Of a stretch of 64,000 nucleotides of DNA, positions 21,554-63,200 are shown one piece after another (positions within the stretch are counted from its first letter, which is position 1; each line of letters starts with the position of its first letter). The notes below the pieces were generated by a model, which saw nothing but the letters and a program-made list of their open reading frames with translations, searched no databases and had not been told where the DNA came from. The position numbers and the translations under genes were made by a program. Source of the stretch: a virus. The DNA lies in the IMG/VR virus record IMGVR_UViG_3300022074_000006, positions 1 to 64,000 of that record; one strand, given 5' to 3'.

Positions 21554-23401
21554 ATGGCAAACGACATAAGAGATAAAGTTAAAAAGTCTAGAGAGAGATC
21601 TTTTCTAGCAAAAGATTTCGATGGTTTTAGAGTCCAACTTTTGGACTATGCAAGAGTTTATTTTGCTGATAACATCCAAGACTTTTCAGAATCTTCTGTT
21701 GGCGGTCTATTGTTAGATATGGCTGCTTATGTCGGTGATACTATGTCGTATTATCTAGACCACCAGTATAGAGAGCTAGATCCTGTTCGTGCTGTCGAAA
21801 GAAGAAATGTAGTTAGGCACATGGTGAACGCCGGCCTAGAAGTACCAGGACCCAGTCCTGCTTCTGCTAAGTGTAAAATCTCTATCACGGTCGACTCAGA
21901 AAAAGACGGAAATGGTGATTATGTGCCAAAAGCAACTCAGCTTCCGATTTTCAAAACCGGGACGACCGTTACATCTCCGGGAGGAATAATTTTTAATTTG
22001 ACTTCTGATGTAGACTTTGCTGAAAAAGACACGTTGGGAAACATGAAAGGTGAAGTCTCAGTCGTAAGTGTTGATGGAAATTCAAACCCTGTACAGTTCA
22101 GAGTCTCCAGAGAAGAATTTTTTGTATCAGGTCAAGAAACAACTGAAGAGTTTGACATAAGTTCAGTTCATGTACCTTTTAGAGAATTGACTCTTACAAA
22201 CCCAGACGTGACTGAGATAGTAGAGGTACATGACCTAGAAGGAAAACCTTACTATGAAGTAGAGACTCTTTCTCAAGATACTGTCTTTGTTCCCGTAACA
22301 AACGTCAAATCTGACAAAGATGAAGTCTCTAAAAATTTAGAAGTCCGACCAGCACCTAGAAGATTTACGAAAAATCGAGATCCTGACTCTGGTTTTACGT
22401 CTATTAGATTCGGCTCCGGAGACGCAAACACATTAGATAACGACATCGTTCCTGATCCTTCAAAGATATCTTTGCCTCTCTACGGCAGAAAGTCTATTAA
22501 GAGGTTCGCTATAGATCCTTCTTCAATACTCAACACTAAAACTCTTGGAGTTTCCCCAAAAAACACGACAATTACAGTTAGATATAGATTTGGTGGAGGG
22601 TTAAGTCATAATGTAGGCGCAAGATCTATTACTGAAGTAGGAGCGATTGTCACAGTATTTCATCAGGATGCTACTGAGAATGAAAAAACTAATGTTAGAA
22701 GCTCTATGGAGGTAGTAAATACTCTTCCAGCTAGGGGTGGTGATGTTGAGCCCACAATCGATGAAATGAGGGCGTCAATAGCTGTAGCATCTCAGTTTCA
22801 AGGTAGAATTGTCACTAAGCAGGACGTTTTAGCTAGGCTTTACACGCTTCCTGGAGAATTTGGAAGAGTCTTTCGAGCTGGGATAAGAGAAAATCCTATA
22901 AACCCACTATCCTCCAGGCTTTTTATTCTTACAAGAGGTGCAGCCGGAGATCTTCAAATAGCACCTGACACAATGAAAAACAACATAGCAAACTACTTGA
23001 ACGAATTTAGACTAGTCTCAGAGTCTATTGAAATACTGGACGGTAGGGTTTTAAACTTTGGAATAAGGTTTCAGGTAGTCACAAAACCAAATGCAAATAA
23101 GGAATCTGTCTTGCAAGGGATTATAAACGAGCTTTCCCTGATGTACGAAATAAGAAATATGCAAATAGATCAGCCCTTGGTTCTAGACGACATGAGATAT
23201 TCAATACTTCAAAATCCTGGTGTGGTTACTCTAAAGAACTTGGAGATAATTTCTAGAGTTGGAGTCGTGGCAGACAGAGACTATAGCACAGAATCGTTTG
23301 AAAAGACTTCTATTGTCAAGAACGGTCTAGTAGTCGGTCCGCCCGGATCAATATTCGAACTTAAATTTCCTGAGTTTGACATAATTGGGAGCACAACCTA
23401 A
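21554..23401 (+). CDS. Baseplate wedge protein, T4 gp6 / baseplate J-like
   Basis: KDFDGFRVQLLDY, DFSESSVGGLLLDMAAYVGDTMSYYLDHQYRE, IRFGSG, RIVTKQD. Confidence 0.9.
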   Translation: MANDIRDKVKKSRERSFLAKDFDGFRVQLLDYARVYFADNIQDFSESSVGGLLLDMAAYVGDTMSYYLDHQYRELDPVRAVERRNVVRHMVNAGLEVPGPSPASAKCKISITVDSEKDGNGDYVPKATQLPIFKTGTTVTSPGGIIFNLTSDVDFAEKDTLGNMKGEVSVVSVDGNSNPVQFRVSREEFFVSGQETTEEFDISSVHVPFRELTLTNPDVTEIVEVHDLEGKPYYEVETLSQDTVFVPVTNVKSDKDEVSKNLEVRPAPRRFTKNRDPDSGFTSIRFGSGDANTLDNDIVPDPSKISLPLYGRKSIKRFAIDPSSILNTKTLGVSPKNTTITVRYRFGGGLSHNVGARSITEVGAIVTVFHQDATENEKTNVRSSMEVVNTLPARGGDVEPTIDEMRASIAVASQFQGRIVTKQDVLARLYTLPGEFGRVFRAGIRENPINPLSSRLFILTRGAAGDLQIAPDTMKNNIANYLNEFRLVSESIEILDGRVLNFGIRFQVVTKPNANKESVLQGIINELSLMYEIRNMQIDQPLVLDDMRYSILQNPGVVTLKNLEIISRVGVVADRDYSTESFEKTSIVKNGLVVGPPGSIFELKFPEFDIIGSTT

Positions 23402-26394
23402 TGTACTTAATACTGACAGCTAGCAAAGATAACTACATAACTAATAAAATTATTTCAAATGGTCCTGCTTTTTCTAAGAGAAGTGTGGCTACTTTAAACT
23501 TTGGCGGAGGAATGGATTCCAACACAAAGATTACGATAACCAGCACTGACTTATTGGCAAAAACTTATCTGGTGATTCAAAATGGACATGGATCTATAGC
23601 TAACGGAGACCTAATAGAAATAGGAGACACTCCGGAGGGTCCAAACACATCATCATCCGGGGAAATTGGAATTTCAGGCGGGACTGTTGCTGTCAACGCA
23701 AAAATAACGTTAATCTCTACAGATACTACTTCCTTGACTTACATAGGTGCTACAGAAGGGGGGTCCGTCGCGACCGGAAAATCTCTTGCCATTGGAGATG
23801 ATCCTGATGGGGAAGGAAATATAGCAGGAGGAGACCCTAGGATTGGAATGATAGCCTTTCAAGTAGGAACAAATGCTGCATCCGGTGCAAATAATCTTCA
23901 GACTGCCATTAACTCTGGAGCAGGTCATAACTCCGGAACTCCTAATTCAAAAATCTCTATAAGCAATGACGGAGCCGGAAAACTAACGCTTACACAGGTC
24001 ACAGCCGGCTCTGCAGGAAACACTAATATAGTAGAAGAAGGAGACTCAACAAACGTTATTACTGTTACAAATTTTTCAGGTGGCAACACTTACACAGCGA
24101 TAGTCGGCGGAGACGAAAGAATAGGGATGACAGCAATTCATGCAGGTAACAGTGCAGGAACTGCAGCAAACAATGCGCAAACTGCTATCAATAGCGCAAA
24201 TGGAAACAACTTGGGTGAGTCTGACTCCAAAATTATTATCGCGAACAACGGCGCCGGATCTCTTGTCCTGACACAGGCAGTTGCCGGAGAATCCGGCAAT
24301 CAAAGAATTGTGATAACATCTGACACAAACAATGTTATCACACTGGCAGACGAAGGTTTTGCAGGCGGTAAGACAGCTGCACCCATAAGAGCAACAGATG
24401 CCAATGTCGGACAGGCAGGTACCTTGGACATTTTCAAGCTATACGGAGAAAATACAATAGCAGGAAACGAAGACGACTTGATTGAGTTAAGCAGAGCCTT
24501 GATAAAGTTCGATCATGATGCTATCATTTCTCACTTGTCTAAAAGCTTGGACATAAACAGTGTCAATTTTAAAGCTGAGCTTAGACTTAGAGACATAACA
24601 ACAGGCAGAGCTGCACCTTCTAACTTTACATTGATGGCTCTTCCCCTTTCTAAGTCTTTTGATGAAGGGATCGGAAGATCTGTTTCGACATTTAACGACT
24701 TAGATATAGCTAACTTTGTGACTGCTTCTTTTGTAGGAAGTCAACCTGTTTTGTGGAATGTTGAAGGGGCGAACGCAACAGGTTCTGCACCTGGAAACTG
24801 GGATGCTTTGACAGCGGTTCAAGCTCGATCGCCATATTCAGGTGCACCAAACTCTGATCCCGCTAATTCTCCAACCACAGTCAATCTCAAATCAACTTTT
24901 ACTGCGGTTCGAGGAGACGAAGATGTTATTTTTGACGTGACAAACGCAGTTTCTTCTACGTTAAAGTCAGATATTGCAAATCACGGATTTAGAGTTAGCT
25001 TTGAAGAGAGTGAAGAAAACAACAAACAAACTTATTTTATTAAGCGACTAGGGTCTAGACACGTTAGAAACATAGATCTTAGGCCTGAGCTTCATGTTTT
25101 CTGGAATGATTCGCAAATAGACAGTTTAGAAAATGCAGAATTTGACTCGGACAACAGCGTGTATCTAAAAAACTACAAAAAGGGAATGCCTAAAAACATA
25201 AGATCAGGTACAGTCGGAGGAGATCCCGCTACTACCACAATGTCAGACATTGCAGGTGCAAACTGCATGAAGCTTATACTTTCCAAAAGTGAACTAAAAA
25301 AGACGTATAACGTTTCCCAAGTCCTAAAGGGAACAGACAGTACAGGTGAAGAAGGAAATTATACTGCTTCTTTTAACATAGACTTGTTTTCAAGTGATGT
25401 TCTAGTTGCCAGTAAGTCCGGGTCTACAACGATTACTTTCCTAGGTGGTCCACTGGACTTGAATACAAAAATTACTTTTTCTTCCACAGACGGGACTTCT
25501 AAGTCTTATCTTGCAATCACAGAAGACCATGGATCTATCGCTAACGGAGACTTAATACAAGTAGGAGATAATCCGGACGGATCTGGAGCAATAATTGCAG
25601 GGGACGAAAGAATAGGTTCTGTTGCTTTTATGGCAGGAAGCAGCAACGTTGATGCTGCAAATAATTTTGCTGCTGCTATAGACTTGGCAAATGGTCACAA
25701 TGCCGGTAATGCTAATTCAAAAATTACAATAGCAAACAACTCTAAGGGTGTAGTGACTTTGACACAAACTACTGCGGGTGGACTAGGTAACAGAAGCATT
25801 GATGTCGTGGGAGACAGCTCCCGAAGACTTAGGTTTACTCGAAACTTCTATAAGTTCACAGGAGGATCAGATTCAAAGACAGTTGAAAAAGAAGCGAGAG
25901 TTTCCGGAAGCATTACATTTGATGTATTCTGGAAGTCCAATGATGAAACTGTTACCTATCATAAAACGAAAATAAAAGTCCGAGATAATTCAGTAGGTCC
26001 GCATGGTCATGGAACTCAAACACCTTCAATTACAATGTCAAACTTGAAGTCTATGTATTCTCAAAAAGATGAAGTCAGAATAAGAGTTTTCCCCTTTGAT
26101 ATGAACGAAGACTTTAAGAACCCAGTGAAGATTCCTCACTCTAGAAAACCTTCTTACGTAGGCGACATTTACTGGAGACTGGTAAATGAAACCACGGGCC
26201 GGGTGATGATCGATTATGAAAAGAACATGGGTTCAACAAAACTTAGTTTTGATAAAGAAGGGTATTATTTTGATTTCTCAATGTCAGTACCTCCGCCTGG
26301 CGTGACGTGCAGGTTTGAGTTCTGCAGGGAAAATCAAGGAAAGGCTCAGATAATGATGCAAAGAAGATTTGCAAGATTTAGGGTGATCAAGTGA
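23401..26394 (+). CDS. Baseplate/tail structural protein (DNRLRE-like carbohydrate-binding core) carrying three copies of the insertion module
   Basis: TASKDNYI...ATDANVG...SRALIKFD...RPELHVFW pattern. Position directly after gp6. Repeated module visible in the sequence. Confidence 0.7.
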   Translation: MYLILTASKDNYITNKIISNGPAFSKRSVATLNFGGGMDSNTKITITSTDLLAKTYLVIQNGHGSIANGDLIEIGDTPEGPNTSSSGEIGISGGTVAVNAKITLISTDTTSLTYIGATEGGSVATGKSLAIGDDPDGEGNIAGGDPRIGMIAFQVGTNAASGANNLQTAINSGAGHNSGTPNSKISISNDGAGKLTLTQVTAGSAGNTNIVEEGDSTNVITVTNFSGGNTYTAIVGGDERIGMTAIHAGNSAGTAANNAQTAINSANGNNLGESDSKIIIANNGAGSLVLTQAVAGESGNQRIVITSDTNNVITLADEGFAGGKTAAPIRATDANVGQAGTLDIFKLYGENTIAGNEDDLIELSRALIKFDHDAIISHLSKSLDINSVNFKAELRLRDITTGRAAPSNFTLMALPLSKSFDEGIGRSVSTFNDLDIANFVTASFVGSQPVLWNVEGANATGSAPGNWDALTAVQARSPYSGAPNSDPANSPTTVNLKSTFTAVRGDEDVIFDVTNAVSSTLKSDIANHGFRVSFEESEENNKQTYFIKRLGSRHVRNIDLRPELHVFWNDSQIDSLENAEFDSDNSVYLKNYKKGMPKNIRSGTVGGDPATTTMSDIAGANCMKLILSKSELKKTYNVSQVLKGTDSTGEEGNYTASFNIDLFSSDVLVASKSGSTTITFLGGPLDLNTKITFSSTDGTSKSYLAITEDHGSIANGDLIQVGDNPDGSGAIIAGDERIGSVAFMAGSSNVDAANNFAAAIDLANGHNAGNANSKITIANNSKGVVTLTQTTAGGLGNRSIDVVGDSSRRLRFTRNFYKFTGGSDSKTVEKEARVSGSITFDVFWKSNDETVTYHKTKIKVRDNSVGPHGHGTQTPSITMSNLKSMYSQKDEVRIRVFPFDMNEDFKNPVKIPHSRKPSYVGDIYWRLVNETTGRVMIDYEKNMGSTKLSFDKEGYYFDFSMSVPPPGVTCRFEFCRENQGKAQIMMQRRFARFRVIK
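23485..24369 (+). repeat. Insertion module copy 1 (outer), interrupted by nested copy 2 at about 23641-24090
   Basis: Copy 1 N-part KITITSTD..HGSIANGDLIEIGDTP and C-part AIVGGDERIG..AANN..AIN..SKI..LTQ..GN..FAGG are separated by a complete second copy. Confidence 0.85.
25420..25866 (+). repeat. Insertion module copy 3 (uninterrupted reference copy)
   Basis: KITFSSTD..HGSIANGDLIQVGDNPDGSGAIIAGDERIG..AANN..GHNAG..SKI..LTQ..GN..FTGG. Confidence 0.85.
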
Positions 26395-29300
26395 CTAGAA
26401 GAAGACTTTTTGACGCTACCATAAGAGACCCTCTACCGATTATCAAGTCTGTTCTAAGCGATAGCAGTCCTGTAAAAGAGAAGACTTTAAATGCCATAAG
26501 CAGCTCTTATTCTCATCCAACTGGGTCTTGGAGATTTGATCCTCCCGGGTCTGGAGTAAAGTCAACACAGCAGCTTCACATAGACTTTTCTAAATTTGAA
26601 AACCACGTATTTTTCAACTCCGCAAGAGCAAAAGTCAATATGGCTTTTGATAAGATCATTAACAGATATCCGTTTGACGGGTCAAAAGAAGAAGTCCAAG
26701 AATTCATTGATGGTCTCAACGGCTTTGAAAGATACGTCTTTGAAAGAATCCCTAGCAGCATAGGTAGTTTGGCTTTTTTGGGGTCACAATATATAAATGT
26801 AAGTGACCGATCAGGAGTCCTCTTTCCTTCCTTGTCTAGAAAGAAAGAAGGCCTTTCTGTCGTGGATCCTAAAGAGGGATCTTTCTGTATAGACTTTCAG
26901 ATATTTGTCCCGAAAAATGTTTTAGGAGCTACAGCAAGAAAGCCGATTCTTCACAAAGTCAATGAAGCAGGAGACGTCGGGCTGACAGTTTACATGAAAG
27001 AATCCGATGCTTTTGGGACAGCACCTTCGGGATCACTTTCAATCTTGTTGTCTGATGGCATATCTTCTCTTTCTTCGTCTATGGAGGTAGAAAAAGGAAC
27101 ATTTGATCATGTTTCTATAAACGTAGCTAGGTCAGGAAAAGACACTCAGATCTCCATGTTTAGAAATGGAAAGCTGACACAAACTTCTGAGGAAAGGCTG
27201 CTGAATACAATCGACACAAAAGGGGCTCCTCTATTGATAGGATCAGCGTCTTCACATGCAGCTGATGTCATCGAGGGAGGAAAGCTTCAGTTTGCTTCTT
27301 CAGAATATTTTTCAGGATCTCTGGATGAACTTAGAATATTTCACAAGACCAGAACAGAGCACGAGATCAATTACAGTATGGACTCTAATGTGTATAGCTC
27401 TGACTATCTTAAGCTTTACTACAAGTTCAACGAACCCTCTGGCTCTCATGGAGGGAGCGATGTAGTTCTAGATAGTTCTGGAAACAGCTTGCATGCAAGA
27501 ATAGAAGGGTATCAGGGGGTCTGCAGAGGTCTTAGAGGTTCTGGACTCGCAGAGGAGGATCCTATCCTCTCTCCTGTCTTGTTTCCTTCACATGTAGATT
27601 TGATCGACTTAAACAAGTCGCTTCTTTTTACAGCATCTCGGTATGATGACTCTAACCCTAATGTAATTACTCGTCTTGTTCCTACTCATTATTTAAAAGA
27701 AGCCCAAATAGATCAGGCACTCTCAACTTTTGATGGTGGAGTTGGAGATCCATATGGGACTTCTTTAGGTGTTCCAGGTTCCGGAAAAATATCACAACCT
27801 CAAATTATATCCAGCCTTCTTTTTACCTGGGCATCTCTTTTTGATGACTTGAAACTTTTTGTGCAAACTTTAGGAGATGTAGAATTTATTTCGCTTGTTA
27901 AGTCAGGAACAGTTCCAGATCAGTTTCTGATCGACAAAGCCGAAAGGATGGGATTCCCACTTCCTGATTTATATTCAAATGCGTCTTTATCGCAGTTTCT
28001 TTTTGCTGCGAGCACTCAGAAGGAAAAAGGCTTAATCACAAAATCTTTAAACTCAGTTCAAAATGAGGTGTGGAGAAGAGTCCTGTCTGATCTTCCTGAA
28101 ATCATGAGATCGAAAGGAACAATTCACTCAGTTGAGACTTTTTTGAGAAATGTAGGCATAGAACCAAATGGTTTGTTTAGGCTTAGAGAATACGGAGGTT
28201 CTAGAAAGATATACCTCGGAAGAGAGCGGCTGAAGAGAAAAGAAGTAACTCCTTTTCTTAACTTTACGTCTTCATACAATAATTTCTCTCCTGCTTATGA
28301 CGCCAATAATATGTCTACAAATTTTCAAGTAGTCAAATCACCGTTTCTCATTGCTTCTAGAAGCGAACCGGGAACGCCTCAAATTACAGAGCATCATAAT
28401 CTAGCTGAATACTACGTTGCGAGAGGCAAGGAGTATGGGTCTGCAGACAACTTAGTAGCTCTGTTTAGGTATTCGTCCGGATCAAGTGGGAAAGTGTCAC
28501 ACCCTAACCACGATGTTGGTCTAACCCTAAAGGATGTTACAGGTTTTGTTTCACCTCTTACGGCATCAGCCCACCAAGCCGGTGCCGGCGTCTCTGTTGG
28601 TCACGGAATTATTACTGGGTCTATATCACCAAAGATAAAGTTAGAATTCGCAGAATATCCAGATGGGCAGGCTCAGTATGGAGAAATTCCCGACAACGAT
28701 AGTTTGTCATTCGGATCAGGCGCTCTTTCTGTGTCTATGTGGGTTCAATTTAGCACAGGACATCCGGGTAATGACAAGCTGATAATTAAAAAGTCTACTG
28801 AATACACAGTTAAATTCGACGCTAGTGGAGACTTGACCTATACTTTAGTTGACAGCGCCGGCGGCTCTAAAACAATGGTGGTATCTGCTGACACCCCTTC
28901 TTCACATTATCTTTTTGATGGCCGATGGCACATGATTACACTTACCCATGAAGGTGGCGGAGGAAACAATGGTGTAAACACTGGAAAGATGAGAATATAC
29001 ATCGATGGCTCGCTAGAGGCAACAGGAGGCACTGTTTCTGGAGGAAATTTCTCTCAAATGAGAAACACAGGAAACAATCTGTTTATAGCTTATGAGCCCG
29101 GGGGAGGCAATACGGGTTGTAAGGTGAATCTAGCTGACTTAGCACTTTGGAGTGCAAGTCTTGATGCAACCACCGTGGAGGCAGTGTACAATTCATACAG
29201 GCGGGAAGAAGACAAGGAAAAGATTGGCCCAGATTTACCACATGGTCTATTGACATCAGGATCATGGGGATACGAAGGGTGGTATAAGTTCAGACCGTTC

Positions 29301-30719
29301 TTCATAAATGGTAAACCTCGAAAGATGCCAATAACTCAAAGTCTTGTTAGAATGTATACGACAGGATCTTCCGTTCCTTCTAGTAAAGGAGGCCTGATAG
29401 GCAATCTTGTTTTGCGATCCGGTTCAGATGACGCCGGTCACTCTCTGGTTCTTCACATGAGACCGAATGTATCTGGAGATCTTTTTAGTCTAGCGCTCAC
29501 CGGTGTGAATTGCTTCAATGGAGATCCGTGGCAAGTATCTTTCGGGAGAGCGAGAAACGATCTTACAGGTTCAGCAGTGTCATCTTCTTACTATTTAAGA
29601 GCAGGATCTGTGAGCAACGGAAAGCTTAGTGGTTTTGTTGAGACTATCGGCGGCTACAAAGACAATTCAGATTATAGTGCCAGAGAAGATCAAAGAACTT
29701 CACTTTTTTCCAGCGGCTCTAAAGAGCTAAACAGTAGCGGAACGTTTTTTGTTATTGGAGACAGTCAAATTACTAATGTTTCGAATGGGGGACTGTTTCT
29801 TCACAATCAAAATTTTGACGAAGAAACAAGAGTAACCAAATTCAAGGGTCAGCTAGGCCCCATCAGATTTTACTCAAAAGAGATAACTCTTTCTGAAACC
29901 AAAGAGCACATTAAGAACTTTAGGTCTGTCGGAGTGGAGAATCCACATAGAAACTTTAACTTCAACATCTTTCGAACCGGTTCATTTGAAAGACTCAGAC
30001 TAGATGCTCACTTAGATCAGGAAGATTTAGTCCCAGACGGCAACGGTTTTCTGGAATTTGTTGACTTTTCAAACAACAAAAACGAAATCTCTGTGACAGG
30101 TCTAGATCCTAAAGTTAGCCCTTTTGATCATGAAACTATGCAATACTCTATACCTTCACCTTACATTGATAGATCTGTTACTAGCAGCAAAGTAAGAGTT
30201 AGAGGATACAAGTCAAGGGATCATGTTAAGAAGTATCACTATTCACAATTTTCTCCGGTGTACGATGTCAATCCTTATGAGGAAAATTTAGATGACAATA
30301 GATTCGCTGTTGAAGTTTCTTCAGTTCAAGGACTCAATGAAGATATCATGAATATTCTGGGAACAATGGATTCGATTGAGGATGCCATCGGAAAGCCTAA
30401 TCTGGTTTTTGCTAGTGAGTATTCTGACTTATCATCTTTGAGAGAGACTTATTTCAAGAGGTTGACTGCTAAGGTCAACTACAAGGAGTTTTTTGAATTC
30501 TTCAAGTGGTTTGATCGATCTATCGGCGGGTTTATTGATTATCTTCTTCCCTCTAAAACAAACTTTCTAGGAACTAATTTTATAATTGAAAGTCACTTTC
30601 TAGAAAGGCATAAGTATAGATACTACTTTGACGATATCTACTTAGGAGAATCTGACAGAGACGGGCTAAAGGGAGAAATAAGACTTCAGCTCATAACTGG
30701 AAGCATAAAGAGGTTGTAG
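26391..30719 (+). CDS. Large baseplate wedge protein (gp7 / P2 gpI-like core) with LamG-like domains
   Basis: PDQFLIDKAERMG and WRRVLSDLPEIMRSKGTIHSVETFL. LamG-type segments GSLDELRIF and DGRWHMITLT..IYIDG..LADLALW. GTG start. Confidence 0.7.
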   Translation: MTRRRLFDATIRDPLPIIKSVLSDSSPVKEKTLNAISSSYSHPTGSWRFDPPGSGVKSTQQLHIDFSKFENHVFFNSARAKVNMAFDKIINRYPFDGSKEEVQEFIDGLNGFERYVFERIPSSIGSLAFLGSQYINVSDRSGVLFPSLSRKKEGLSVVDPKEGSFCIDFQIFVPKNVLGATARKPILHKVNEAGDVGLTVYMKESDAFGTAPSGSLSILLSDGISSLSSSMEVEKGTFDHVSINVARSGKDTQISMFRNGKLTQTSEERLLNTIDTKGAPLLIGSASSHAADVIEGGKLQFASSEYFSGSLDELRIFHKTRTEHEINYSMDSNVYSSDYLKLYYKFNEPSGSHGGSDVVLDSSGNSLHARIEGYQGVCRGLRGSGLAEEDPILSPVLFPSHVDLIDLNKSLLFTASRYDDSNPNVITRLVPTHYLKEAQIDQALSTFDGGVGDPYGTSLGVPGSGKISQPQIISSLLFTWASLFDDLKLFVQTLGDVEFISLVKSGTVPDQFLIDKAERMGFPLPDLYSNASLSQFLFAASTQKEKGLITKSLNSVQNEVWRRVLSDLPEIMRSKGTIHSVETFLRNVGIEPNGLFRLREYGGSRKIYLGRERLKRKEVTPFLNFTSSYNNFSPAYDANNMSTNFQVVKSPFLIASRSEPGTPQITEHHNLAEYYVARGKEYGSADNLVALFRYSSGSSGKVSHPNHDVGLTLKDVTGFVSPLTASAHQAGAGVSVGHGIITGSISPKIKLEFAEYPDGQAQYGEIPDNDSLSFGSGALSVSMWVQFSTGHPGNDKLIIKKSTEYTVKFDASGDLTYTLVDSAGGSKTMVVSADTPSSHYLFDGRWHMITLTHEGGGGNNGVNTGKMRIYIDGSLEATGGTVSGGNFSQMRNTGNNLFIAYEPGGGNTGCKVNLADLALWSASLDATTVEAVYNSYRREEDKEKIGPDLPHGLLTSGSWGYEGWYKFRPFFINGKPRKMPITQSLVRMYTTGSSVPSSKGGLIGNLVLRSGSDDAGHSLVLHMRPNVSGDLFSLALTGVNCFNGDPWQVSFGRARNDLTGSAVSSSYYLRAGSVSNGKLSGFVETIGGYKDNSDYSAREDQRTSLFSSGSKELNSSGTFFVIGDSQITNVSNGGLFLHNQNFDEETRVTKFKGQLGPIRFYSKEITLSETKEHIKNFRSVGVENPHRNFNFNIFRTGSFERLRLDAHLDQEDLVPDGNGFLEFVDFSNNKNEISVTGLDPKVSPFDHETMQYSIPSPYIDRSVTSSKVRVRGYKSRDHVKKYHYSQFSPVYDVNPYEENLDDNRFAVEVSSVQGLNEDIMNILGTMDSIEDAIGKPNLVFASEYSDLSSLRETYFKRLTAKVNYKEFFEFFKWFDRSIGGFIDYLLPSKTNFLGTNFIIESHFLERHKYRYYFDDIYLGESDRDGLKGEIRLQLITGSIKRL

Positions 30720-33203
30720 ATGAGCAAGTTTGCTATTCAAAATATAAAATACAGACCAACAATAAACTTCAGAGCAGGACCGGGCGACGGGTTCGCGTAC
30801 ACGATGTCTAATGCTGTTCTAAATTGGTGGAGCTTAGAGAGTGTAAACATTGAGCCGACTGATGCAGCAACGTATAGATCTGAAGATCACGTCGATGCTA
30901 GAAGCAAAATACCTTTGATTTACGCTTCAAATGCGGCAAGATCACACGTATCAAGCGACGTCCCCTCTAGAAAAATAACTAAAAGTTCTATCAAGTTCGG
31001 AAATACAGGTCAGATAGCTCAGACTAGTACAAATGCAGTTAGTTTTGCTAATACGTCAATTAGTTCCGGAGATGATCCCTTTAGTATTTCTTTTTGGGCA
31101 AAAAAAGTGGGCGGCGACGCCAGTTCAAAGATAATCATTGCAAATTCAAGCCCGTCTGGCTACACTAGTAGGAGAGAGTATACAGTTGCTTTTGCTTTAG
31201 GCACTCAGCCTATATTGGAAGTATACGGAAATCAAGATTTAAGTGAGTCAATATCAATAAAAGCCCAGCATGCTTCGTCACTCTTAAGTAGTTCAGAGTG
31301 GAAGCATTATGTTTTTTCGTATTCGGGGAAGCCCATCTTCAACGGATCTACAATGGCAAGTTCTGGATTGAAAATCTATGTAAACGGTGAGGTTCAGACT
31401 TCAAATCTTGCACAGCAACTAGAAGATGACTATTCCGGGATGAGAACAAATCCTTTGAATGTTTTTACAATTGGAGATGTCGGTGGAGGCGGAAATATTC
31501 TTCTTTCTGATTTGATAGTTTTTAACAAAGAAATTGACTCTGATTCTGTTAAAGCTTTGTACTACTCCAAAGACGGATCATTCATAAGAACTAGAAACTA
31601 TCTTAAAAAAGGTTCAAAAGTTAGTTCTCCTGAGGGGTCTGAGATTGACGGCTTTAGAGAGGGCGTGAGCATCCGAAACGGTGAAGACCTGTCCACGTCA
31701 ATAAGAATGAAAATACATTCAACTTTAGACTTTGTAAGAGCACACTCAGGTTCTGCAGTCTCAGTTGACTCTCCTTTTGATGACGCAAACATTCCTTTTT
31801 ATGTAGCACAAGATTCCGGAAGCTACAAGGGAGTTTTGGACTCTACTAGAGGTCATAGCGGCTATAGTTCAGTCCTCCTTCACGAAGTTGAAAAAAGAGA
31901 CTTTGGAATTTTCAACAGGCACCAAGACGGAACCCCTTTTAACGATACTCTTTTCGACACTCCACAGAAGGTACTTGAGGATGTGAGAACGATTGCAGGA
32001 GATCCTGACGATCGACACCTGAGGGTTTATATAGGTGAGACTCCAAACGAGCTCTACAATTCAACAGACGTTTATGACAAAGAAGCCCGAGTAGACATCT
32101 TCGAAAGAAGTATTGATTTAAGGTCAATAATTCCGGACCTAAGAGACGGAGAAAGAGATTTTACTAGAAGATCCAGAAGGCTTACAAGAAGTGGATCGAT
32201 GACCATACCTGCACGTACAAGAGGGTTTAGTGGAGAATGTAACTGTATTGGAATTACAGATGTTAGATTTAATGACAACAGAGAATCTTCAATCCCCTTT
32301 TACGAAGTCTATAGAGAAGGAGACATGCACTTTACTTCATCGGCAGTCAAGGATGGATATATGCATGCAGGACGAGGAACAATAGAAACTATCTTAAGTC
32401 AATCTTCCGGACCACGACATATTGATACATCTTACAGTAGGAGGTCTGAGCCTTACGGTGTGTATGCTCAGTCGACAGTTGATACTTTCTACGGTTTGCC
32501 AGGAGCAGACAAGCTTCAGGGCAGGACGTTTACAGCGAGATATAGGGTAAGCTCAGCTGACAAACCCTTTAGAGACGAGTCTAAGGAAACTTTCGTTGAA
32601 GAGAAGTTTAATTCTTCAAATTTTAATTTTGATGCAGGAGTCGGAGCTTCAGCTCAATTAGTTTATGGAATTGGTGCGAACCTTAGTAACCTAGATACAA
32701 TCACCATAACGTCCACGGACCAGACAACAAAGTCTTATAGAATCTCCTCCGGAGGAGGCCTTTCATCAGGAATGGTTGTCGGAAACAAAATTGTTGTTGT
32801 CTTGGGAGCCAACAACAGTGCGACTGCCGCCCAAATAGTGGCTGCGATAAATACATCAAATGGTCATAACGCCGGTACTCCCAACAGTAAAATAATCTTA
32901 GAGCAGGCAGCCATCAATGATGACGAAGGCACGATTACGTTCACTCAAGCAGTTGGTGGAACTGCAGGAAACACAGCAGTCACTAAGAATCAATCAGGAG
33001 ACTTTACTGTGACAAACTTTTCTGGAGGAAAACAGTCTGATAACAAAGACTTCGTAGATACTCTAAAGAAAATGTACATGACTGGGTCTTCTATTCACGA
33101 AGGTCCCCAGACGGGTTATACTATTTCCACTAGAGGAATCCAGGGAGATACAGGCCAGTATAAGACTGACTCAATTGTCTTTGTAGGAATGAAGAGGAAC
33201 TAA
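30720..33203 (+). CDS. Structural protein with N-terminal LamG-like domain and one insertion module
   Basis: FSISFWAK, EWKHYVFSY, KIYVNG, LSDLIVFNKEI. Module at 32646-33029. Confidence 0.7.
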   Translation: MSKFAIQNIKYRPTINFRAGPGDGFAYTMSNAVLNWWSLESVNIEPTDAATYRSEDHVDARSKIPLIYASNAARSHVSSDVPSRKITKSSIKFGNTGQIAQTSTNAVSFANTSISSGDDPFSISFWAKKVGGDASSKIIIANSSPSGYTSRREYTVAFALGTQPILEVYGNQDLSESISIKAQHASSLLSSSEWKHYVFSYSGKPIFNGSTMASSGLKIYVNGEVQTSNLAQQLEDDYSGMRTNPLNVFTIGDVGGGGNILLSDLIVFNKEIDSDSVKALYYSKDGSFIRTRNYLKKGSKVSSPEGSEIDGFREGVSIRNGEDLSTSIRMKIHSTLDFVRAHSGSAVSVDSPFDDANIPFYVAQDSGSYKGVLDSTRGHSGYSSVLLHEVEKRDFGIFNRHQDGTPFNDTLFDTPQKVLEDVRTIAGDPDDRHLRVYIGETPNELYNSTDVYDKEARVDIFERSIDLRSIIPDLRDGERDFTRRSRRLTRSGSMTIPARTRGFSGECNCIGITDVRFNDNRESSIPFYEVYREGDMHFTSSAVKDGYMHAGRGTIETILSQSSGPRHIDTSYSRRSEPYGVYAQSTVDTFYGLPGADKLQGRTFTARYRVSSADKPFRDESKETFVEEKFNSSNFNFDAGVGASAQLVYGIGANLSNLDTITITSTDQTTKSYRISSGGGLSSGMVVGNKIVVVLGANNSATAAQIVAAINTSNGHNAGTPNSKIILEQAAINDDEGTITFTQAVGGTAGNTAVTKNQSGDFTVTNFSGGKQSDNKDFVDTLKKMYMTGSSIHEGPQTGYTISTRGIQGDTGQYKTDSIVFVGMKRN
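32646..33029 (+). repeat. Insertion module copy 4
   Basis: TITITSTDQTTKSY..AAINTSNGHNAGTPNSKI..FTQAVGGTAGNT..TNFSGG. Confidence 0.85.
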
Positions 33204-33204
33204 A

Positions 33205-36200
33205 ATGCCTAGGATTGAACGTAAATCTATTACACAAAACTTCGACATAAGTACCATAGATCCTTTTGAAAACACAGGATCAGCCTCGTCAGGTGCTGTT
33301 GTCGTTCAAAAAAGCGTTGAATTAATCGACCAGCCGAACAAAGAGCCAGGAACTGTTAATTTTGGATCTGCGGCCGAAGTCGGCACCATGCAAAATATCG
33401 AACCAGGAACAAAAGTCATCTTGTTGGGTCGACAAAGCGCTGAAGCCGGCAATGCAGCTTCTCACCAGGATCGTTTTTTTTACTTAAATAAAAAGTACTC
33501 GGGAAACCCAAAGATCACTGTTTCGATTACAGCGATTTGCGGAGACAATACAACCGATCCTGCAGTAATTCGACAGGGAGGCAGTGTCCTAGAATTGTCA
33601 ACACCTGAAAACGCGTCGGGTGACATATTGGAATTACAACACTCTGTGGACGGAGACACATGGACAACGTTTAGAAATGTCAGACCCCATGATGCAGGGA
33701 ACGGTGTTCGAGATCTTACCTTTTCAGAGTTTAGAACAGTCACAACGACTTTTACACCACCTGATGGTCAAAGTGTCTACATAAGAGTGAACCAGAAAAA
33801 TTATCACGGCAACACTCATGACCACTACGCTGTCAAGAGTCTGGTAGTTGACGAATCGGGTGGCAATAGATCAACCTACGGGGGAGGCAATAGGATGGCC
33901 TCTGGTTTTACAACTCTAAATCCGAAGATTGTTCAGATCATTCACGATAATTCAGAGTCAGATTCTTATGTGGCACAAAACCTATCTATTAAAAATAGAA
34001 GAAACATCTCTAAAAGCATAAGAAATTCGTCTTTTGACGACCAGAAGGAATTGAGACCTCCCAATACAACCAGAAAAGAAGTGATCTCCATATCCGTTAA
34101 ATCAGCCCGGGGTCTCATAGACAGGTGCAAGATATTCATCAGAGGAGCTGATGGAATTGAGATGAAGTCATATGCTTTTGTTTCATCTGACAGAGATGAC
34201 ATTGAATCTTTTGAGGGAGGATTGACCGCAGCCGATACAAAAATAAATATTTTGACTGAATTAAGAAAGATTCCTTTTAAACTGAGGAAAAAAAGGGCTT
34301 CTATTGCAAGGGCAATTGCCAGCTCTTTAGCACAAGCAATAGAAGCTGATAAGTCTCTCAAGATAAAAGCACGATCTTCTGACAACAAAGTATACCTTGA
34401 AGATCATTACGTAGAAAGCGCAGTTCCACACCCAGTGCGTTACATCTCTGGTATCTCACCACCCAGAGCAATACAGCACCCAGCCAAAGCGATTAGATAC
34501 GCGCGGGGTACGCACACAAACTTAGCTAACACCGAAGAGGGAAAAACGATCACGATAGTGGATGCTCAGGGTCTCAAGAGAGTTTACGCTCTAGTAAATT
34601 CTTCTCAGACTTCAATGACCACCGGAACTGTAATTAATACCGGAGATGATATAGGATCTGGAACTGCAAGCAGCGGTTTAAAGGGAGCCATAGCAGTTGC
34701 TGTTAACATATCATCAACACTATCGTCGACTACCCTGAAGGAGTTGAAAGTTGCGATAAATCACAAAAATGGTCACGGAAGAAGAATTTCTGTGAGTGAT
34801 GTCTACGAGACTATAACGTATGGGTACATGCAAATTAGATCAGCTGTCCCTCCCTTGAGAGAAGGTCAAGGGATTCAGGTGTCAGAAAATACTGCGTCAT
34901 TTACTCTAGTCGATACAATTAGAGATGAAACTTCTATGGGACCTCCTACTGCTTCTATCACTTTTTCTTCTCTGCCAGCAGTTAATTCGTATATTGAGAT
35001 TAGACCTAGAGACAATGTCTTAAAAAGATATGTTTCGTGTAGATCAGACGGAGATGTTAACACGGGAGATACTCTTAAGTCGGGAGACATTGTAGATGGT
35101 CCAGGTACAGCAGTTGGAGCCGCCGGAATCGGAGGAGTTGCTGTCGTTGCCAACGATCGCTCTAATTTTGAAGAACAGTTTGTAAAGGCAATCAATTCAA
35201 AAAACGGTCAAAGGGGGAAGGTTAAAATTAGAAAAGTCGTACCACTAGCAGGTGCGAACGAGTACGTTTTGACGGACAAAACTAGTTCAAAGTATTCTTT
35301 TGATACTTGGGGTACACAATCAGTCACGTCTACGGCTGGCGGAGCAGCAACAGTCAGCACATGGAAAGGAGCTTCAGGAGGAAAAATAGTTGAAGCCATA
35401 CAGGGGGATGAAAAGTCTGTTAGTTCTATCAAGGTTGAAATTGTGTCCTATGGCGGCCCGACTCCAGATATCATTGCTGGAATAAACTATACTAATATAG
35501 ATGTCGCCAAAGAGGCTGGTGTCAATGACCACAAAGCCCCAGACATTCAGTTTCGATCTCCTGTTTTGCATGGATCAGGACCAAATAAAAATATCTTTAA
35601 TCCTACCACAGGATCTTTTAATCCTTTTAAAGAAGTGGGCCTATATGAATCATTCGATGGAGAAACAGGTCCTGGTGTCAACTTAGAGCACACGTACGTA
35701 GCTAGACAAAATGAAGCCTCTTTGACGTCTGCTCTTGGTAAAGGTTTTGAGGGTTCACTTTCTTCAAAAGAGTGCATAGAAATAGAGTTGGACGGATCAG
35801 GAGCTACTACGGCCACTATATATCGATCAGGCAATGGCGCCGGAGATAATCTTAGACCCTCCATGGCTTATCTTTCAAAGACAGGTGTGTGGACTCCCTT
35901 GACTCACGACCCACCTTGTGACACGCGTTTTCCAGGAGCACAAAGCTCTCAGTTTCCCAATCCATTGGCCGCCATCTCAGCTTTGTATCATCAGATATCT
36001 GAGAGAGCTATGATAGGATTTAGCCAAAACTATTCTATGTTAATATCTCGATTAGAAAACTCTACTTATATTGAGAGATCATCTTTAGGAATGTCCGAAG
36101 AGACTTTTGAATCTGAAAAAGAAAGGTTTGCTTTTGTAGAAGGTGCTCCAAGTTCTTGCATTAACACTTTTGGTTTTCCTTCTCACCCTAAGTTTTCTCG

Positions 36201-39200
36201 AGATGACAGCTTAAAGTTTGACATGTCTGACTATATAGATGACGACTTTCTTGTTGAAAACATAGTCGTTGATTGTCAGCTGGCAATGTCGGGTGGTACT
36301 GTTACTAAAACCAACCTGAACTACCTCGGTGATTTTGCGGAGCTCATGCCCGAAGGTTTAACTTTTTTCATGCTGTGCGAAAGAAAAGGAAAAATCACAG
36401 ATCAGGCCTCAGAAATAGCATTTCAAATGGAGATTGATGAAGACTTAAACGGTGATGTAAATAATGTCTCTAGAATTACTAATGCTTCTTCTTTTTCTAT
36501 ACCAGCCTGGTATCCTTATGGTAAAAGTCTTGCGTGGCCTGCGTCTTTTGACCCGGGTTCCTCTGAGTTTATACCTAATTCTACCATTTATAATGGAGAA
36601 TCAGCAGCAACTATAAACGCCGGCGTCGCGGCATCTCGAGGGTGGTCTTTTTATGATGTTATGGGCAACTCCGGAGTTTGGGATACACCAATAGTCAGCG
36701 GTGATCGGTGGCTACAGTGTAGATGGCAGTATATTTCAACTTCAAATATAGATAAGATCAATCCGGTATCTCAGATTGATTCTCTCTATACGGCAAACAG
36801 CCACAAACCACACATAAACATTCCTTTGTCTGAGGGCTACTCTGAGAACTCATATCTTACTACAGATTACGGTTATCGTCTTAGATTTCAGGCTTATGTT
36901 GCATTTGAAGACGCAAACGGCGATTCGATACCAGACATTCTTCAAGATATCGGTGATTTTGGCCCCGGCGGAGCCGCAGCTTTTCAGAGGGGCTATTGGC
37001 GGAGATTTAATCGCGTCAACGTGTTTGCGACTTACTTAGACAGCGTTAAGAGTGGAAAATCTGACGGGATTAGAAATCTTGTTGCTTCTGTTGACATTGA
37101 GGACCATTTTTCCGGATCTCCAATACCTCTAATATATGACGTTCCAATTCGAACTGAGTTTGCTAGTAATTCTGCCAACGCCAGAAAATTCAACTTAATG
37201 ATAGAAGTGATTACTTCCAATGCTGTTATGGAACCCAGCTCTAGTGATATCAATGAGTCAATTTATATTTCTAATCTTGAAATTTCGAGAACTGAAAAAT
37301 CTCAATATGTTGACACCATTAGAGACATTGTTGGATGGGGAAATATTGCAACTTTTCCGGAAGATTACAACGAGATTCAAAAAAACCTCTCTTCTAAGTC
37401 GATCGACATTAGAGAGAGATTTAGCACCGTGATTGACTCAGACATTCCAGTGACTGGAAGGTACGTAACAAGATTTCCAGCTTTAGCTCCGGTTCCAGGA
37501 GACGTTGGAACAATCTCGGCATACAGCTCTGTGGGGGCTAGCCCTTACGACCTCATAGTCACGAACTGGGATTCTCTAGGAAGATCAGGCATCGCCGGGA
37601 TGCCTTCTAACAGATCAGTTGTCAGGTCACTGCCAGGAAATAAGCCTGCATATACAACAAGACAGTTTCGAACTAAGTACAGAGTTCCTATCGCCAGACA
37701 TAATTCTCAAGTCTCTCCCTATTTGCTTAAAAAGTCGGACAAGATAATAATTGGGGCACAGGCACCTATGTCTTATTTTATCAGCGAATCAAGCACCACA
37801 GCCGGTGCGACTGATCTTTTGCAAGGAAAGGTCAGAGTCAAGATCTACGGATCTAGAGTTTTGAATGAAAGGCTCACGCATAATAATCAGAAGGATTCTT
37901 TAAACACAGATTCAGTTCACCAAGTCATTGGTGACATTCCTGTAAGGGACCAGATTGAAGCTTATTCAAGATCAGACCTTAGCGATACTTACATGGACAA
38001 AATAATGTTTGGTGATCCTTCTTTGACAAAATTTGCAAGAGGAGCTGAGCTAGTTGATATCGGGATTGGAAAGTCTTACAACGTTTCCAATATATATGCA
38101 AACACTATCATGTTCAAAGCTTACATGGATGGTATCATCGCCGAAAGATACGTTCCTGTTAAGTCCAAACCCATAGGAACAAAGAACAGAGATGGATTTG
38201 GAAAGTACGGAGACTTCTTGCCAATGTGCGCAACTATTGTTGTTGAAAAAGGCACAGACTGGAATGCAGCAAGCCAGGCCAACTCCTGGACAGGAAAGTG
38301 GATACAAGTCACAGACCATAGATATCAAAAGGTGAGGCGTTTTATCTTTCAAACGACCGGGACTACTGGAACTACTTTTGTGAGTTCAGGAGGATTTACG
38401 TATGTTAGAGTGGTGACCTCTGCGGCTGCCAACATCCGGAGTAAAATACAAGAGCTAAGAAAAGCTATTCTACAGCCCCTTGCCTTTGGTCAGGCAGGAG
38501 CCGACGCCAACGCGATACTTGATAACGCTTTAAAGCCTGAGTCTCCTCTTGCCGTCCATGACAACTTTTTCGCGCTTGCCTTGCTTGATTTGACTGACTC
38601 CAATTCAGATCTCATTCCTGACAGTGGGCACTACGTAGCAGCCTTACAGATTTTTCCTAGAATATTCTCTAGAGCAGAAGCAGACCTCTATGACAAGTCT
38701 ATGGGTCCTCACGGAGAAGGAACGAATTCTCTTATTGAGATTTCCCTTGCAGGAGGGGGATGGACAGACGAGATGTCTGTAAGATTATTGCCCGCTTTCG
38801 GTCAGTTAAGTTCCACGCACCACGTAGCTAGGCCTGTACAGGGGTTGAGCACTCCATGGAACATGTTGAGAAAAGATAGAGTGTTTAATCGAGGTGTTGT
38901 AACAAAGCCGTCAGAAGGAACTTCCGGAATCACAGGATCACTTCAACATTTTGCAACCCTTGTCGATAGCGAGGTCGTCAAGTATGACTCTCTGGTTCCT
39001 CCTGTTTATGAGTTTCTCAAGAACTTTGATGTCAAAGTTCCTGTTTCTGGCGACTCCGGAGTTGGTGGGTTTATAAGTGGATCATTTCTGCCGATATTTC
39101 AGCGGTGTCAAGTAATCAACACAAGTGGATCTGCGTGCACAGGAAGAGGAGCTTTTCCTCACAGTACTCCTTACGTTCAAGCACCCGGAATTATAGGTTT

Positions 39201-56223: not shown

Positions 56224-56230
56224 ACTAAAA

Positions 56231-58202: not shown

Positions 58203-58913
58203 ATGGGATTCCTGGATCATTCTACAAACAATATAATTTTAGATGCAGTCTTGACCGACGCAGGTCGTAGGCAACTTGCTGCAAACAGAGGCGACTTTCA
58301 AATTGCGTATTTTTCCTTAGCAGACGATGAAGTCGACTACACGCTGATTACAAAGTTCGGAAGAGCAATAGGAAAAGAGAAAATCTCTAAAAACACACCG
58401 ATTTTTGAAGCTCAAACCAACTCGCAAATAGCTTTAAAAAATAGACTGCTTTCTCTTCCGGACCCAACAGTTACAGTGCTTCCTAAGATAACTGCAACTG
58501 TAAATGGCACAGAAGAGGTTTCTCTTTCCAGGCTGACTGCCTCGAGACAGACGGCGACAATCAGACTTGAGCAAACCATAGAGTCGGGCAGACCTATTCC
58601 AGACGGTGCAGTTGACTCTTCTTTCACAGTCATAGTTCCGGATAGATTTGTTAAAATACCAAACGCAGACCCTAATGCTATAGATGAAATAAGCAGAATG
58701 GCAAGTTATGATGTGATCGCTGCCGGATCTCGAAACGCATCTGGAGGAGCTGACACCGGCTTTCAAGTAAGAGTTTCTCCAGGACTAGACGATGAAATGT
58801 TTGACGGGTTTGGGGATCAAGGAAATAAGTCTCAGATCTCTTCGATAATAACTGTGATCGGAAATCAAACCGGTTTTAGAAAAGACGTAGCTGTTAAGAT
58901 TACAAAGACGTGA
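58203..58913 (+). CDS. Baseplate/fibre-attachment-like protein
   Basis: IILDAVLTDAGRRQLAA..FQIAYFSLADDEVDY resembles the LTxxG..LA start of tail-collar/fibre-anchor domains. Confidence 0.6.
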   Translation: MGFLDHSTNNIILDAVLTDAGRRQLAANRGDFQIAYFSLADDEVDYTLITKFGRAIGKEKISKNTPIFEAQTNSQIALKNRLLSLPDPTVTVLPKITATVNGTEEVSLSRLTASRQTATIRLEQTIESGRPIPDGAVDSSFTVIVPDRFVKIPNADPNAIDEISRMASYDVIAAGSRNASGGADTGFQVRVSPGLDDEMFDGFGDQGNKSQISSIITVIGNQTGFRKDVAVKITKT

Positions 58914-58931
58914 TATAGGAGTTAAAGCAAA

Positions 58932-60284: not shown

Positions 60285-60293
60285 GAGGGCTTG

Positions 60294-63200
60294 ATGGCCA
60301 TTATACCTCTAGAGCCGGGAAATTTTGATTCATTTGAAATTGTCGGTCGACCTCGGAGTAAGTTTAGCTCAGGAAGTCACATGGGTCCAACTGGATCGAT
60401 GCCTCTTGTTAGCAACAAGACGACTGCAATAAAGGACGTTGAAGTTAGAGAAGAGTTCGGATCTGGTCCTGTTGTTGACAACTCTTACAGAGCAGTACTT
60501 GAGGGAAGTCGACTTAACGATTTCGCTCAGTTTACAATAACCATTCAGTCCGGATCTTACAGGCACAAGTCTAAGTCAGCCCAGATCAGTCTAGCTTCTA
60601 CATCGACAAGGCTGGGCTATAGATTCAATTTGCTGACATCTGCTAGTCAAGCAAAGGAAACTACTTTTAGAGACACAGATGTTGACATAATAGACATAGC
60701 TGCTCAATCTCCTGCAGCATTTCTTGCTAACAAGAGCTTAGGACTGATCGCTCAGAGAATTCAAACAGCAATAAATAGTCCTCTAAATACACCCGACCCT
60801 GCTGATGTGACTAAATATATAAAGGTCCAGCACTACTTGGCTTCGCCTCCTGTTCCAAATAATGCCAACCCTCCGACTGAATATACAATCGATGTCCAGT
60901 TTATTAAGACTCCGTATTACTCTGGGGGTCAACCAAGACAGTTTCAGACTGGTGAGGTTATGGTTAACAAGATCAACAGAAGTTCTCATAGAAACGCAGC
61001 CGGAGTATTTGACGCTAATGACAGTATACAGTTCAGTGCAATAACGATTCAGTCTGGGTCAAATCTCGAAACAAAACTCAACAACCTTTTGAATGAAACT
61101 AGAGATCAGCCTGTAGCAGCAAATTACGGCAAAGAGTTGCGAGTAGTAAGGTTTGAACCATCTGTTAAGTTCACTAAAGATACAATGAGAAAAAACGTAG
61201 TGAAAGACGTTTTGTATCCTAGCTACAGGCACCTGTATCCTAATCTGCACTGGTCTTACACAAATTATCATTCTATCAATTTCTTTACTGGGAGCGGTAT
61301 TCCTGAGGATACTGCAATTCTCTATTTGAACAAGCTTAAACCTAAGTTTTCTGTGGAAATACCGGTGTTGAAAGACGGATCTTTCAACACCGATGAGTTC
61401 ACTAAGAACTCTGACTCTGATTTTGTGTCTCCTCAAGCAGGATTCAACGTTGAAGGTGTCACTACAGATGACAAGGTTTTTGTTTTTAATTCTACACAGG
61501 CTGTAGGTCAACAATCATCTGGGTTTGGCAGGAATATATCACTCAAAAGAACCATCCCATCCAACACCCTCGCTACTGTAAGAATGGACATCATCAAAGC
61601 GAAAGGGTCGTCTATTCCTGGGGTAGGGTCCATTTTCTTAAGAAGCGGAACTACGCCTGATCAAGCCAACGGCATTAAGATCAGCATCATAGACAATGAG
61701 GGATCTCCAACAACTAAAGTCTATGTCTTGGATTCTTTTGGAGACTATTCTGTCGCAGGAAATGAAGTCAAAGTAGATATTTCAAGCCAGACTGGCGTCA
61801 ACGGGATTTTAAGCACCCTCAGGACTTCAATATTGTCCGCCGGCGGTCATAACAACAAGGTCCTGGTAGGTCCGGTCTTGAATAACACTCTGGAGTTAAC
61901 TCAAGCGACAGGAGGTACTTCTGGCAACAAGACAATTTCAGTATCTGGCGACAACTTAGAAAAAATCATAGTGTCTTCTTTTGCTGGAGGAGCTGCTAGT
62001 GATCAAGTTAATCGACCCGACGGGGGTGCTTTAGAGGCCCCTGATCCTGCTGTTGCTGCAGACGGTTCCATAACAGTTGACAATTCTAGCCCTACAATAA
62101 CTAACGGCACCACCATCACCATGTCTTCAACAGATCAGACAGAGATCGTGTACGTGATAGACACGGGCCAGTCAAACACAGGACACAAAAACGGGTTAGG
62201 ACAGGTCGTGATTGGATTGAACGGTGGTCCTAACGCAAATGCAATAGCATCAAAAATCCAAAAAGCAATACTGTCAGGCAATGGGCACAATGGAAAGATA
62301 AGAGCAGAATTAAGCAACAACGTAGTGACGTTGACTCAGCAAGCAAAGGGTGCAGCAGGCAATGGATCGATTGTAATTGCAGGAGATACTGACAGCCTTC
62401 TGACTCCGTCTAATTTTACTAACGGTTTTACAGGAGAAGATGTTGTCATACTCCACAAGAAGAAGTCTGATGCGTCTTTCAAAGAAATCTACAGAATAGA
62501 CATTGCAACTCTTAAGACGCCCAATCAGAATGAGTGGAAAAAGGTTGAGTTTGATATATCGGGTGATCTTATTGACGAAGACTATGAGGTTAAAATAGCA
62601 CAGTCTGCACCTTCCAGTGACAATCATGATCATCTTATTGTTCATGACGCTAAAATTACTCTAGAAACATTGCCTGAAGACTCTACTGTCAAACTTCCCT
62701 ATGCATACTCTCCTAGAGAAGATTTCACTATGTCATTCTGGATAAAGCCTAAAATAGTAGGCAGAGACAAAAATGGAGGATATAAGGCAGGCACAGTTTT
62801 GCACTTGTCCAGCTCTTACGCAATATCAGTCCTGTCAGGAAGCTCAGTCGACGGTTTCGGCAGATCAGATAAGTTTAGATTGATGTTCCAGTTTGATACG
62901 AGTGCCAACATTGCACCTTCTAAAGTCCCTCTTAAAAAGTACGCTAGAAGCGATTCTGAGCATGATCCTGCTTTGTGGAGTGTAGGAAGTAACTTTAAAA
63001 ACGGTGAGTATCCAAGGGACGGAAGAGTTATCACGAACTCTTTAGTTTGGAAAGATGATGCCGATCTTATATTCTTGTCGTCTGACAATGCACTTTCCGG
63101 AGATACGTGGCATCACGTCGCCGTAAGATGGTCTGCCCACAAGAACAATAGGTCAGGATCGATCTATATAGACGGAGAGCTGGATTCTACTTTTCACATA

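Follow-up and report, generated by a model that had tools for sequence, protein, structure and literature searches.

How does a single protein module come to stand in several otherwise different tail genes of one phage, and in one of them inside another copy of itself? The question is raised by the first 64,000 nucleotides (the window) of the IMG/VR virus record IMGVR_UViG_3300022074_000006, a genome of 133,292 bp in which a domain of about 115 to 145 amino acids (aa) recurs among the baseplate and tail proteins. The reading we favor, at a probability of roughly 80%, is that this is an accessory module, with an alpha/beta fold like those of sheath insertion domains and FliD, which was copied in frame into loops or linkers of virion proteins in a T4-like lineage and then probably put to use as surface decoration. 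The process is domain shuffling rather than transposition. Both the phenomenon and the closest fold class are already known, and no new mechanism is revealed; the novelty lies in the sequence family, its use well outside the sheath, its self-nesting, and the clean pairs of filled and empty alleles.

The motif can be found by a simple pattern search, and BLASTP connects three of the open reading frames (ORFs) that carry it, with E-values from 1e-4 to 6e-12. Four seed copies served to build a hidden Markov model (HMM), the narrow profile, which was iterated over all ORFs of the genome and gave significant copies in three ORFs, with independent E-values (iE) of 1e-14 to 1e-48. Gene A (23401 to 26394, like all module-bearing genes of the window on the plus strand) encodes a 997-aa baseplate-region protein with an N-terminal half only (aa 35-96, iE 1.7e-14), a full copy (aa 93-233, 1.4e-47), a C-terminal half only (aa 243-326, 3e-28), and another full copy (aa 682-828, 6e-48), and this order of N-half, full, C-half, full is read as three modules, one of them split. 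Gene C (30720 to 33203, 827 aa) combines an N-terminal LamG-like domain (PF13385) with one module (aa 652-774, iE 2.5e-40), while gene H (1491 aa, 60294 to 64000 and continuing beyond the window to genome position 64766) has two (aa 458-572, 1e-30; aa 600-717, 2e-37).

A broad profile, for which 250 instances of the domain were taken from database relatives, added two degenerate copies in the 2357-aa product of gene D (33205 to 40278) and one full copy beyond the window, in the tail sheath (aa 211-312, genome positions 87929 to 88234, iE 6.4e-10). The degenerate copy D1 (34522 to 34845; profile match at 34528 to 34803, HMM positions 3-80, iE 3.7e-11) retains, on reading its sequence, the N-terminal part, the helix, and the NGH motif, and the TLTQ..G..GN part is gone; D2 (34972 to 35286) is matched at 34981 to 35274 over HMM positions 6-88 (iE 4.6e-6). 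The total is nine copies, eight in genes that start in the window and a ninth in the sheath, distributed over at least five tail or baseplate proteins. A sequence-only reading of the window had counted eight copies in at least four structural genes, three in gene A, one in gene C, two degenerate ones in gene D, and two from 60294 onward, and the two profiles reproduce that count and assignment exactly. Three weaker candidates that it had listed are non-significant (34132 to 34353, iE 14; 38302 to 38472, iE 4.3; 60520 to 60790, iE above 50).

Scans of the genome and of databases with these profiles place the copies in one significant family. The motif first described from the window alone is real, since over the 250 instances the signature ITLxSTDGTxKTY ... 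AI..NGHNG ... TLTQ..G..GN ... F.GG is conserved, with the G-H, Q, G, and G-N positions each kept in about 90%. Against 1.84 billion cluster representatives (50% identity), a five-sequence profile matched 425 proteins at E≤1e-3, of which 89 reached E≤1e-10; these proteins range from 160 to 4159 aa and have 1 to 14 matched stretches each. Among the best 150 of the 425 matches there are 176 full copies, 40 N-part-only copies, and 67 C-part-only copies, and full copies often have a series of C-half units behind them.

No established family claims the module. A Pfam hmmscan of five copies at E≤10 returned two chance-level rows only (E 0.2 and 1.5), and hmmscan at or near the curated thresholds gave no match to PF25650 crAss_AuxCP, PF07196 Flagellin_IN, or PF17481 Phage_sheath_domII. 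In PHROGs the five copies had no threshold-level match, the best being phrog_165 "tail sheath" at E 0.003 with one copy only, and ten module-bearing database proteins matched nothing. The five-copy profile found no PDB sequence at E≤10, and hence no solved sheath or FliD domain, and searches of PDB sequences with the gene A, gene C, and gp6-like proteins were likewise empty. Nothing was found in 50,697 GenBank phage records, either by tblastn with gene A, the module, and a stand-alone relative (P0049) or by blastn with the region, nor in viral contigs scanned with gene C or metagenome contigs scanned with its relative P0152. Protein language-model look-alikes of the module belong to viral clusters without names; of those with names, the nearest are the crAss auxiliary capsid protein, Flagellin_IN, a sheath domain of unknown function (DUF), and sheath domain II, all to be taken as leads only. 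One database protein, P0127, was considered as a sheath and set aside, having only the N-terminal motif and a weak PDB match (E 0.035), and is not used as evidence.

An AlphaFold2 model of the gene C copy, computed from a 36-row alignment, has a mean predicted local distance difference test score (pLDDT) of 83 and a predicted template modeling score (pTM) of 0.80, and combines a roughly nine-stranded sheet with one long helix. In a fold search this alpha/beta model superposes on solved sheath insertion domains; lower in the same search stand FliD D2-D3 (7.4), the crAss001 auxiliary capsid protein (7.4), T7-like nozzle domains, and T4 gp11, and Foldseek puts the same families on top. As modeled, then, the module is an independently folding accessory domain with the fold of the sheath outer insertion domain and of FliD D2-D3. 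The sequence-only reading had offered sheath and flagellin insert domains as a conceptual analogy, and the analogy turns out to be the actual best fold match.

A sheath insertion domain (InD) and its likeness to FliD D3 have been described for Vibrio phage XM1 (PMC10457771). The sheath domains compared here were the XM1 InD (7kh1), Mu gpL residues 94-224 (9khy), cyanophage A-1(L) residues 92-185 (8kee), and the external domain D3 of PhiTE (9cb9). Like them, the module is an accessory domain plugged into a host domain and predicted to be surface exposed, and the phage's own sheath has a copy. Unlike them, it has no detectable sequence similarity to any solved sheath, occurs in baseplate-region and giant tail proteins as well, is nested in itself, and varies in presence among close relatives. 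The FliD outer domains D2-D3 (5fhy, 5h5w, 6iwy) and the flagellins (4nx9; Geovibrio 9au6) belong to bacterial filament proteins and have no sequence relation to the module. The crAss001 auxiliary capsid protein (PF25650; 7qof chain a) is not an insert but a capsid protein in its own right, and PF25650 was unmatched by the five copies at E≤10.

A second parallel lies in the virions of lactococcal and related siphophages, which are decorated by carbohydrate-binding modules (CBMs) in "evolved" Dit, neck passage, Tal, and tail-tube extension proteins (PMC6669499). There, as here, one portable module sits in the loops of several virion proteins, is present or absent among related phages, and, in the siphophage case, is thought to add host adhesion. 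The siphophage CBMs differ in being beta-sandwiches whose sugar binding has been demonstrated, and their phages infect Gram-positive hosts, whereas the module has a helix packed on a sheet, its best fold matches are sheath and FliD domains rather than CBMs, and its carrier is a T4-like myophage. The CBM-like part of gene H is the host domain and not the module. Shuffled accessory domains on phage virion proteins are known, and the suggestion that the window might hold an undescribed system was overstated.

That the modules interrupt host domains, as had been claimed from the sequence, is seen in gene A, where the host is itself a module. In a three-way alignment the outer copy (aa 28-80, 23482 to 23640, HMM positions 1-58) halts at the loop motif GDTPEG, a complete copy follows (aa 81-232, 23641 to 24096, HMM positions 1-129) inside the GDxPxG/GDERIG loop, and the outer copy resumes at AIVGGDERIG (aa 233-326, 24097 to 24378, HMM positions 46-127). 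The rejoined outer halves rebuild a loop that is continuous in the third, uninterrupted copy of the same protein (25444 to 25884). By sequence alignment, one gene A module sits in a loop of another. Orthologue comparison adds two further states: P0003 has a single uninterrupted module at this N-terminal site, and P0001 has the same nest plus a further insert of about 110 to 150 residues in the equivalent loop of the inner copy. Around aa 150-298 of P0001 the inner module is itself cut by a degenerate piece that resembles the module (it contains AANGH, a strand like TL..G, and F.AGGG at its end), which makes an apparent third level of nesting.

In gene H the host is a jelly-roll of the CBM/reelin type. 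A model of aa 340-800, folded with eight relatives as alignment rows, has a pLDDT of 75.5, and single CBM/reelin domains from the fold search align to it over the range 13-455, with 130 to 155 residues aligned. This span includes both flanks of the module pair, and the CBM-like jelly-roll is therefore split, its first part (61344 to 61610) lying 5' of module H1 (61617 to 62009, including the leading strand) and module H2 (62058 to 62444, including the leading strand), and its remainder (62445 to 62672, DSSP strands 379-454 of the model) lying 3' of them. A relation between this jelly-roll and a domain in the 2357-aa protein, proposed from an alignment by eye, had no BLAST support (best E 0.3); the jelly-roll itself is backed by the fold search. 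Since the host fold closes around the insert and the filled and empty alleles described below are precise, we infer that the N- and C-termini of the module lie close together, in line with what the sequence-only reading had supposed.

Insertion sites vary among homologues of genes A, C, and H when presence and absence are mapped, so the invariance that would have counted against the sequence-only reading is not seen. The gene A family includes distant orthologues of about 510 aa in three viral contigs (L001-L003) that are without any module. At its N-terminal site there may be none, one (P0003), two nested (the window), or the nest with its further insert (P0001), the third module is present in P0001, P0003, and P0013 and absent from the L001-L003 orthologues, and P0097 alone is filled at one further site. 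In the gene C family, the window and P0010 are filled at aa 635-771, P0153 has no module, and P0154, P0022, P0030, and P0155 are empty there and have a module between aa 360 and 366 instead. In the gene H family both modules are kept in six orthologues, three of which have a third at H 1028/1031.

The sharpest comparison is between two gene C relatives, P0152 (687 aa) and P0176 (825 aa), which belong to one 90% cluster, are 93.9% identical, and differ by exactly the gene C module. P0152 aligns to gene C aa 1-634 and 772-827, so that the stretch missing from this empty allele comprises the module with its linkers (aa 635-771, 32622 to 33032). Window-by-window identity along the alignment gives the history of the difference. 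P0176 follows P0152 at 95-100% along 600 columns; in about 34 columns to the left of the insert and 23 to the right, P0176 is instead 94-100% identical to the filled allele of the window, and there P0152 reaches no more than about 60% and is similar to empty alleles from distant relatives. This mosaic of flanking haplotypes indicates cassette exchange by homologous recombination in the flanks, and it gives substance to the earlier presumption that the modules spread by recombination. At the same site (32604 to 32630 and 33018 to 33040) the two flanks are alike, SSN-FNFD on the left and SDNK-DFVD on the right, where empty alleles have SND.DF and DNA similarity is weak; this could be a short target duplication seen at the protein level, or coincidence.

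Identity inside and outside the modules differs from gene to gene. Between the window and P0176, identity is 49% in the interior of the gene C module and 90% in the rest, and in gene H the modules are about 50% identical and the host about 70%. A general rule that modules evolve faster than their hosts was rejected, because it fails in gene A and in the comparison of gene C with P0010.

In a maximum-likelihood tree of 32 copies, grouping follows site and not genome, with 9 label changes against 21.8 expected and none of 200 shuffles as low. This points to old insertions that were then vertically inherited and, together with the scant nucleotide identity of the copies and the lack of bounding repeats described below, excludes a recently active DNA element. 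On sequence comparison, modules are also shown to have moved between different genes. The copies at site c1 of the gene C family are 49% identical to gene A copies and 32% to the gene C copy, have the longer A-type loop, and fall within the A-type clade. Taken together, the comparisons show that duplication and insertion of coding DNA give rise to new copies, including copies in other genes; that most of these are then inherited vertically at their site; and, in protein sequence at one site, that filled and empty versions are swapped by homologous recombination in the flanks. Close domain ends would allow the host domain still to fold while the module projects outward from baseplate-region proteins, a giant tail protein, the sheath, or, in one case, the loop of another copy.

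Some observations weigh against this account or narrow it. Tree support for transfer between genes is only 81-90 in the Shimodaira-Hasegawa-like approximate likelihood ratio test (SH-aLRT), and the exchange of filled and empty versions between related phages by homologous recombination is shown in protein sequences and at one site. In the gene H model, DSSP assigns no host strand between H1 and H2, and the 17-residue linker between them has a pLDDT of about 55; for these reasons the two appear to be a tandem pair in one loop, which makes one insertion place rather than two, and their interpretation as two separate loop insertions was set aside. The gene C site, which has a conserved region on one side and a C-terminus of 56 highly conserved residues on the other, may be a loop or an inter-domain linker alike.

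Could the modules be selfish elements acting at the DNA level, either in the manner of the Rickettsia palindromic elements to which they had been likened or as an intein-less homing cassette that transposes into coding sequence? Presence in at least five unrelated genes, once within itself, and filled/empty polymorphism between 94%-identical alleles are what such an element would leave, but most of the other evidence runs the other way. No terminal inverted repeats or flanking direct repeats bound any copy in the genome, and blastn between copies finds short patches only, with negligible nucleotide identity otherwise. The guanine-plus-cytosine content of the modules, 0.42-0.46, differs little from the roughly 0.42 of the host genes, the clustering of copies by site across phages speaks of old, inherited insertions, and the filled/empty difference accompanies a divergent flanking haplotype, as expected of allelic recombination and not of precise excision. 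The likeness to Rickettsia palindromic elements is consequently not borne out, and a selfish element is largely refuted and retains hardly any probability. The exception to the negligible nucleotide identity is a 53-nucleotide stretch encoding the HGSIANGDLI..GD.P.G loop, which the third module of gene A (25528 to 25580) shares at 87% identity with the outer N-half (23587 to 23639). It could have been left by gene conversion, or it could be the homology used in the nesting event.

Ordinary tandem repeats, spreading like beads on a string by unequal crossing-over and never entering a host domain, would account for the pairs H1-H2 and D1-D2, for the full copies followed by C-half runs in many database relatives, and for a C-half that can stand alone as a unit, as the counts of partial and full copies indicate. 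They would not account for a jelly-roll that closes around a module pair, for single modules at differing internal sites of otherwise collinear orthologues, or for the N-half, full copy, and C-half of gene A, which rebuild one loop exactly and on this explanation would need two precisely matched deletions; we consider repeats of this kind improbable as the whole explanation. Still less probable is that the module serves as a display scaffold for virion glycosylation, and not as a binding domain, by the enzymes of a 17-kb glycan gene cluster (194 to 17162). The glycosyltransferases, carbamoyltransferase, and UDP-GlcNAc 2-epimerase of that cluster lie directly 5' of the baseplate genes, and the module has a conserved Ser/Thr-rich strand (ITxxSTDGT). 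This case is one of co-location and composition, the family occurs in hundreds of proteins, and conservation is highest at G-H, Q, and G-N and not at Ser or Thr. Insertion of a folded accessory domain into virion proteins, followed by inheritance and allelic exchange, is the reading that we retain.

The carrier is an uncultured, distantly T4-like myophage, probably marine. The remainder of its gene set includes a large terminase, a portal, the 1204-aa sheath, UvsX, a DnaB-like helicase, and NrdA. No GenBank phage has a terminase more than 43% identical to this one, the best matches being those of Microcystis phage Mel-JY01 and the Flavobacterium phage "immuto" isolates. Proteins related to those of this phage are of metagenomic origin, and a stand-alone relative of the module has a name from Tara Oceans. 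The sheath gene (genome positions 87299 to 90910; phrog_23, E 1e-48) is matched by sheath PHROGs only over aa 848-1203, leaving an extra N-terminal 850 aa that include the module copy.

The baseplate and fiber region comprises the genes from 23401 to 64766 and lies downstream of the glycan gene run, whose glycosyltransferases are of the GT2 and GT4 families. Directly 5' of gene A is a gp6-like baseplate wedge gene (21554 to 23401, plus strand), preceded by a gp25-like wedge gene (21034 to 21540, plus strand; PF04965 GPW_gp25, E 8e-5), and PHROG "baseplate wedge subunit" matches (phrog_43/261, phrog_219) extend across the pair. The 1442-aa protein encoded between genes A and C (26391 to 30719) contains a Laminin_G_3 (concanavalin-like) domain at aa 664-949 that is an insertion itself: the L001-L003 orthologues, at about 1170 aa, match aa 10-663 and 950-1441 but lack the part between, so that in-frame domain insertion in the baseplate region is not specific to the module. 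The 1877-aa protein that follows gene D (40278 to 45911) matches tail-fiber PHROGs (phrog_9942, E 3e-23; phrog_18345) and is without a module; the giant tail proteins of this phage are thus not all module carriers. A Mur-ligase-like gene lies on the minus strand amid the tail genes (45912 to 47087).

The likeliest role of the module is outward decoration of the virion surface, through weak adhesion to polymers of the host surface or by adding radial bulk or stalk length. The suggestion is made by analogy with sheath outer domains, the outer domains of FliD and flagellin, capsid auxiliary proteins, and the CBMs of lactococcal phages (PMC6669499). The conserved polar cluster (G-H-N, T-Q, and G-N) is a candidate functional or ligand site, and, speculatively, the adjoining glycan cluster hints at glycan binding or glycosylation. 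A more ambitious proposal, which we hold to be unlikely though worth stating, is that the module is a programmable building block: nesting and tandem insertion would set how long baseplate appendages are and how far they reach, the polar cluster would bind a glycan of the host or one made by the phage, possibly by the 17-kb cluster, and turnover of modules would tune host range.

What the locus offers is, in the first place, a sizeable domain family that has no name in any database and is a good candidate for a Pfam entry. It also gives clean natural evidence for remodeling of the phage adsorption apparatus, in the form of a site filled or empty at 94% identity, alternative sites, and a copy within a copy, with the same fold common to sheath and baseplate proteins. 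If the building-block proposal were true, gain, loss, and fast divergence of modules would directly tune host range in marine T4-like phages. The family is a tractable case for asking whether plug-in domains affect adsorption or host range.

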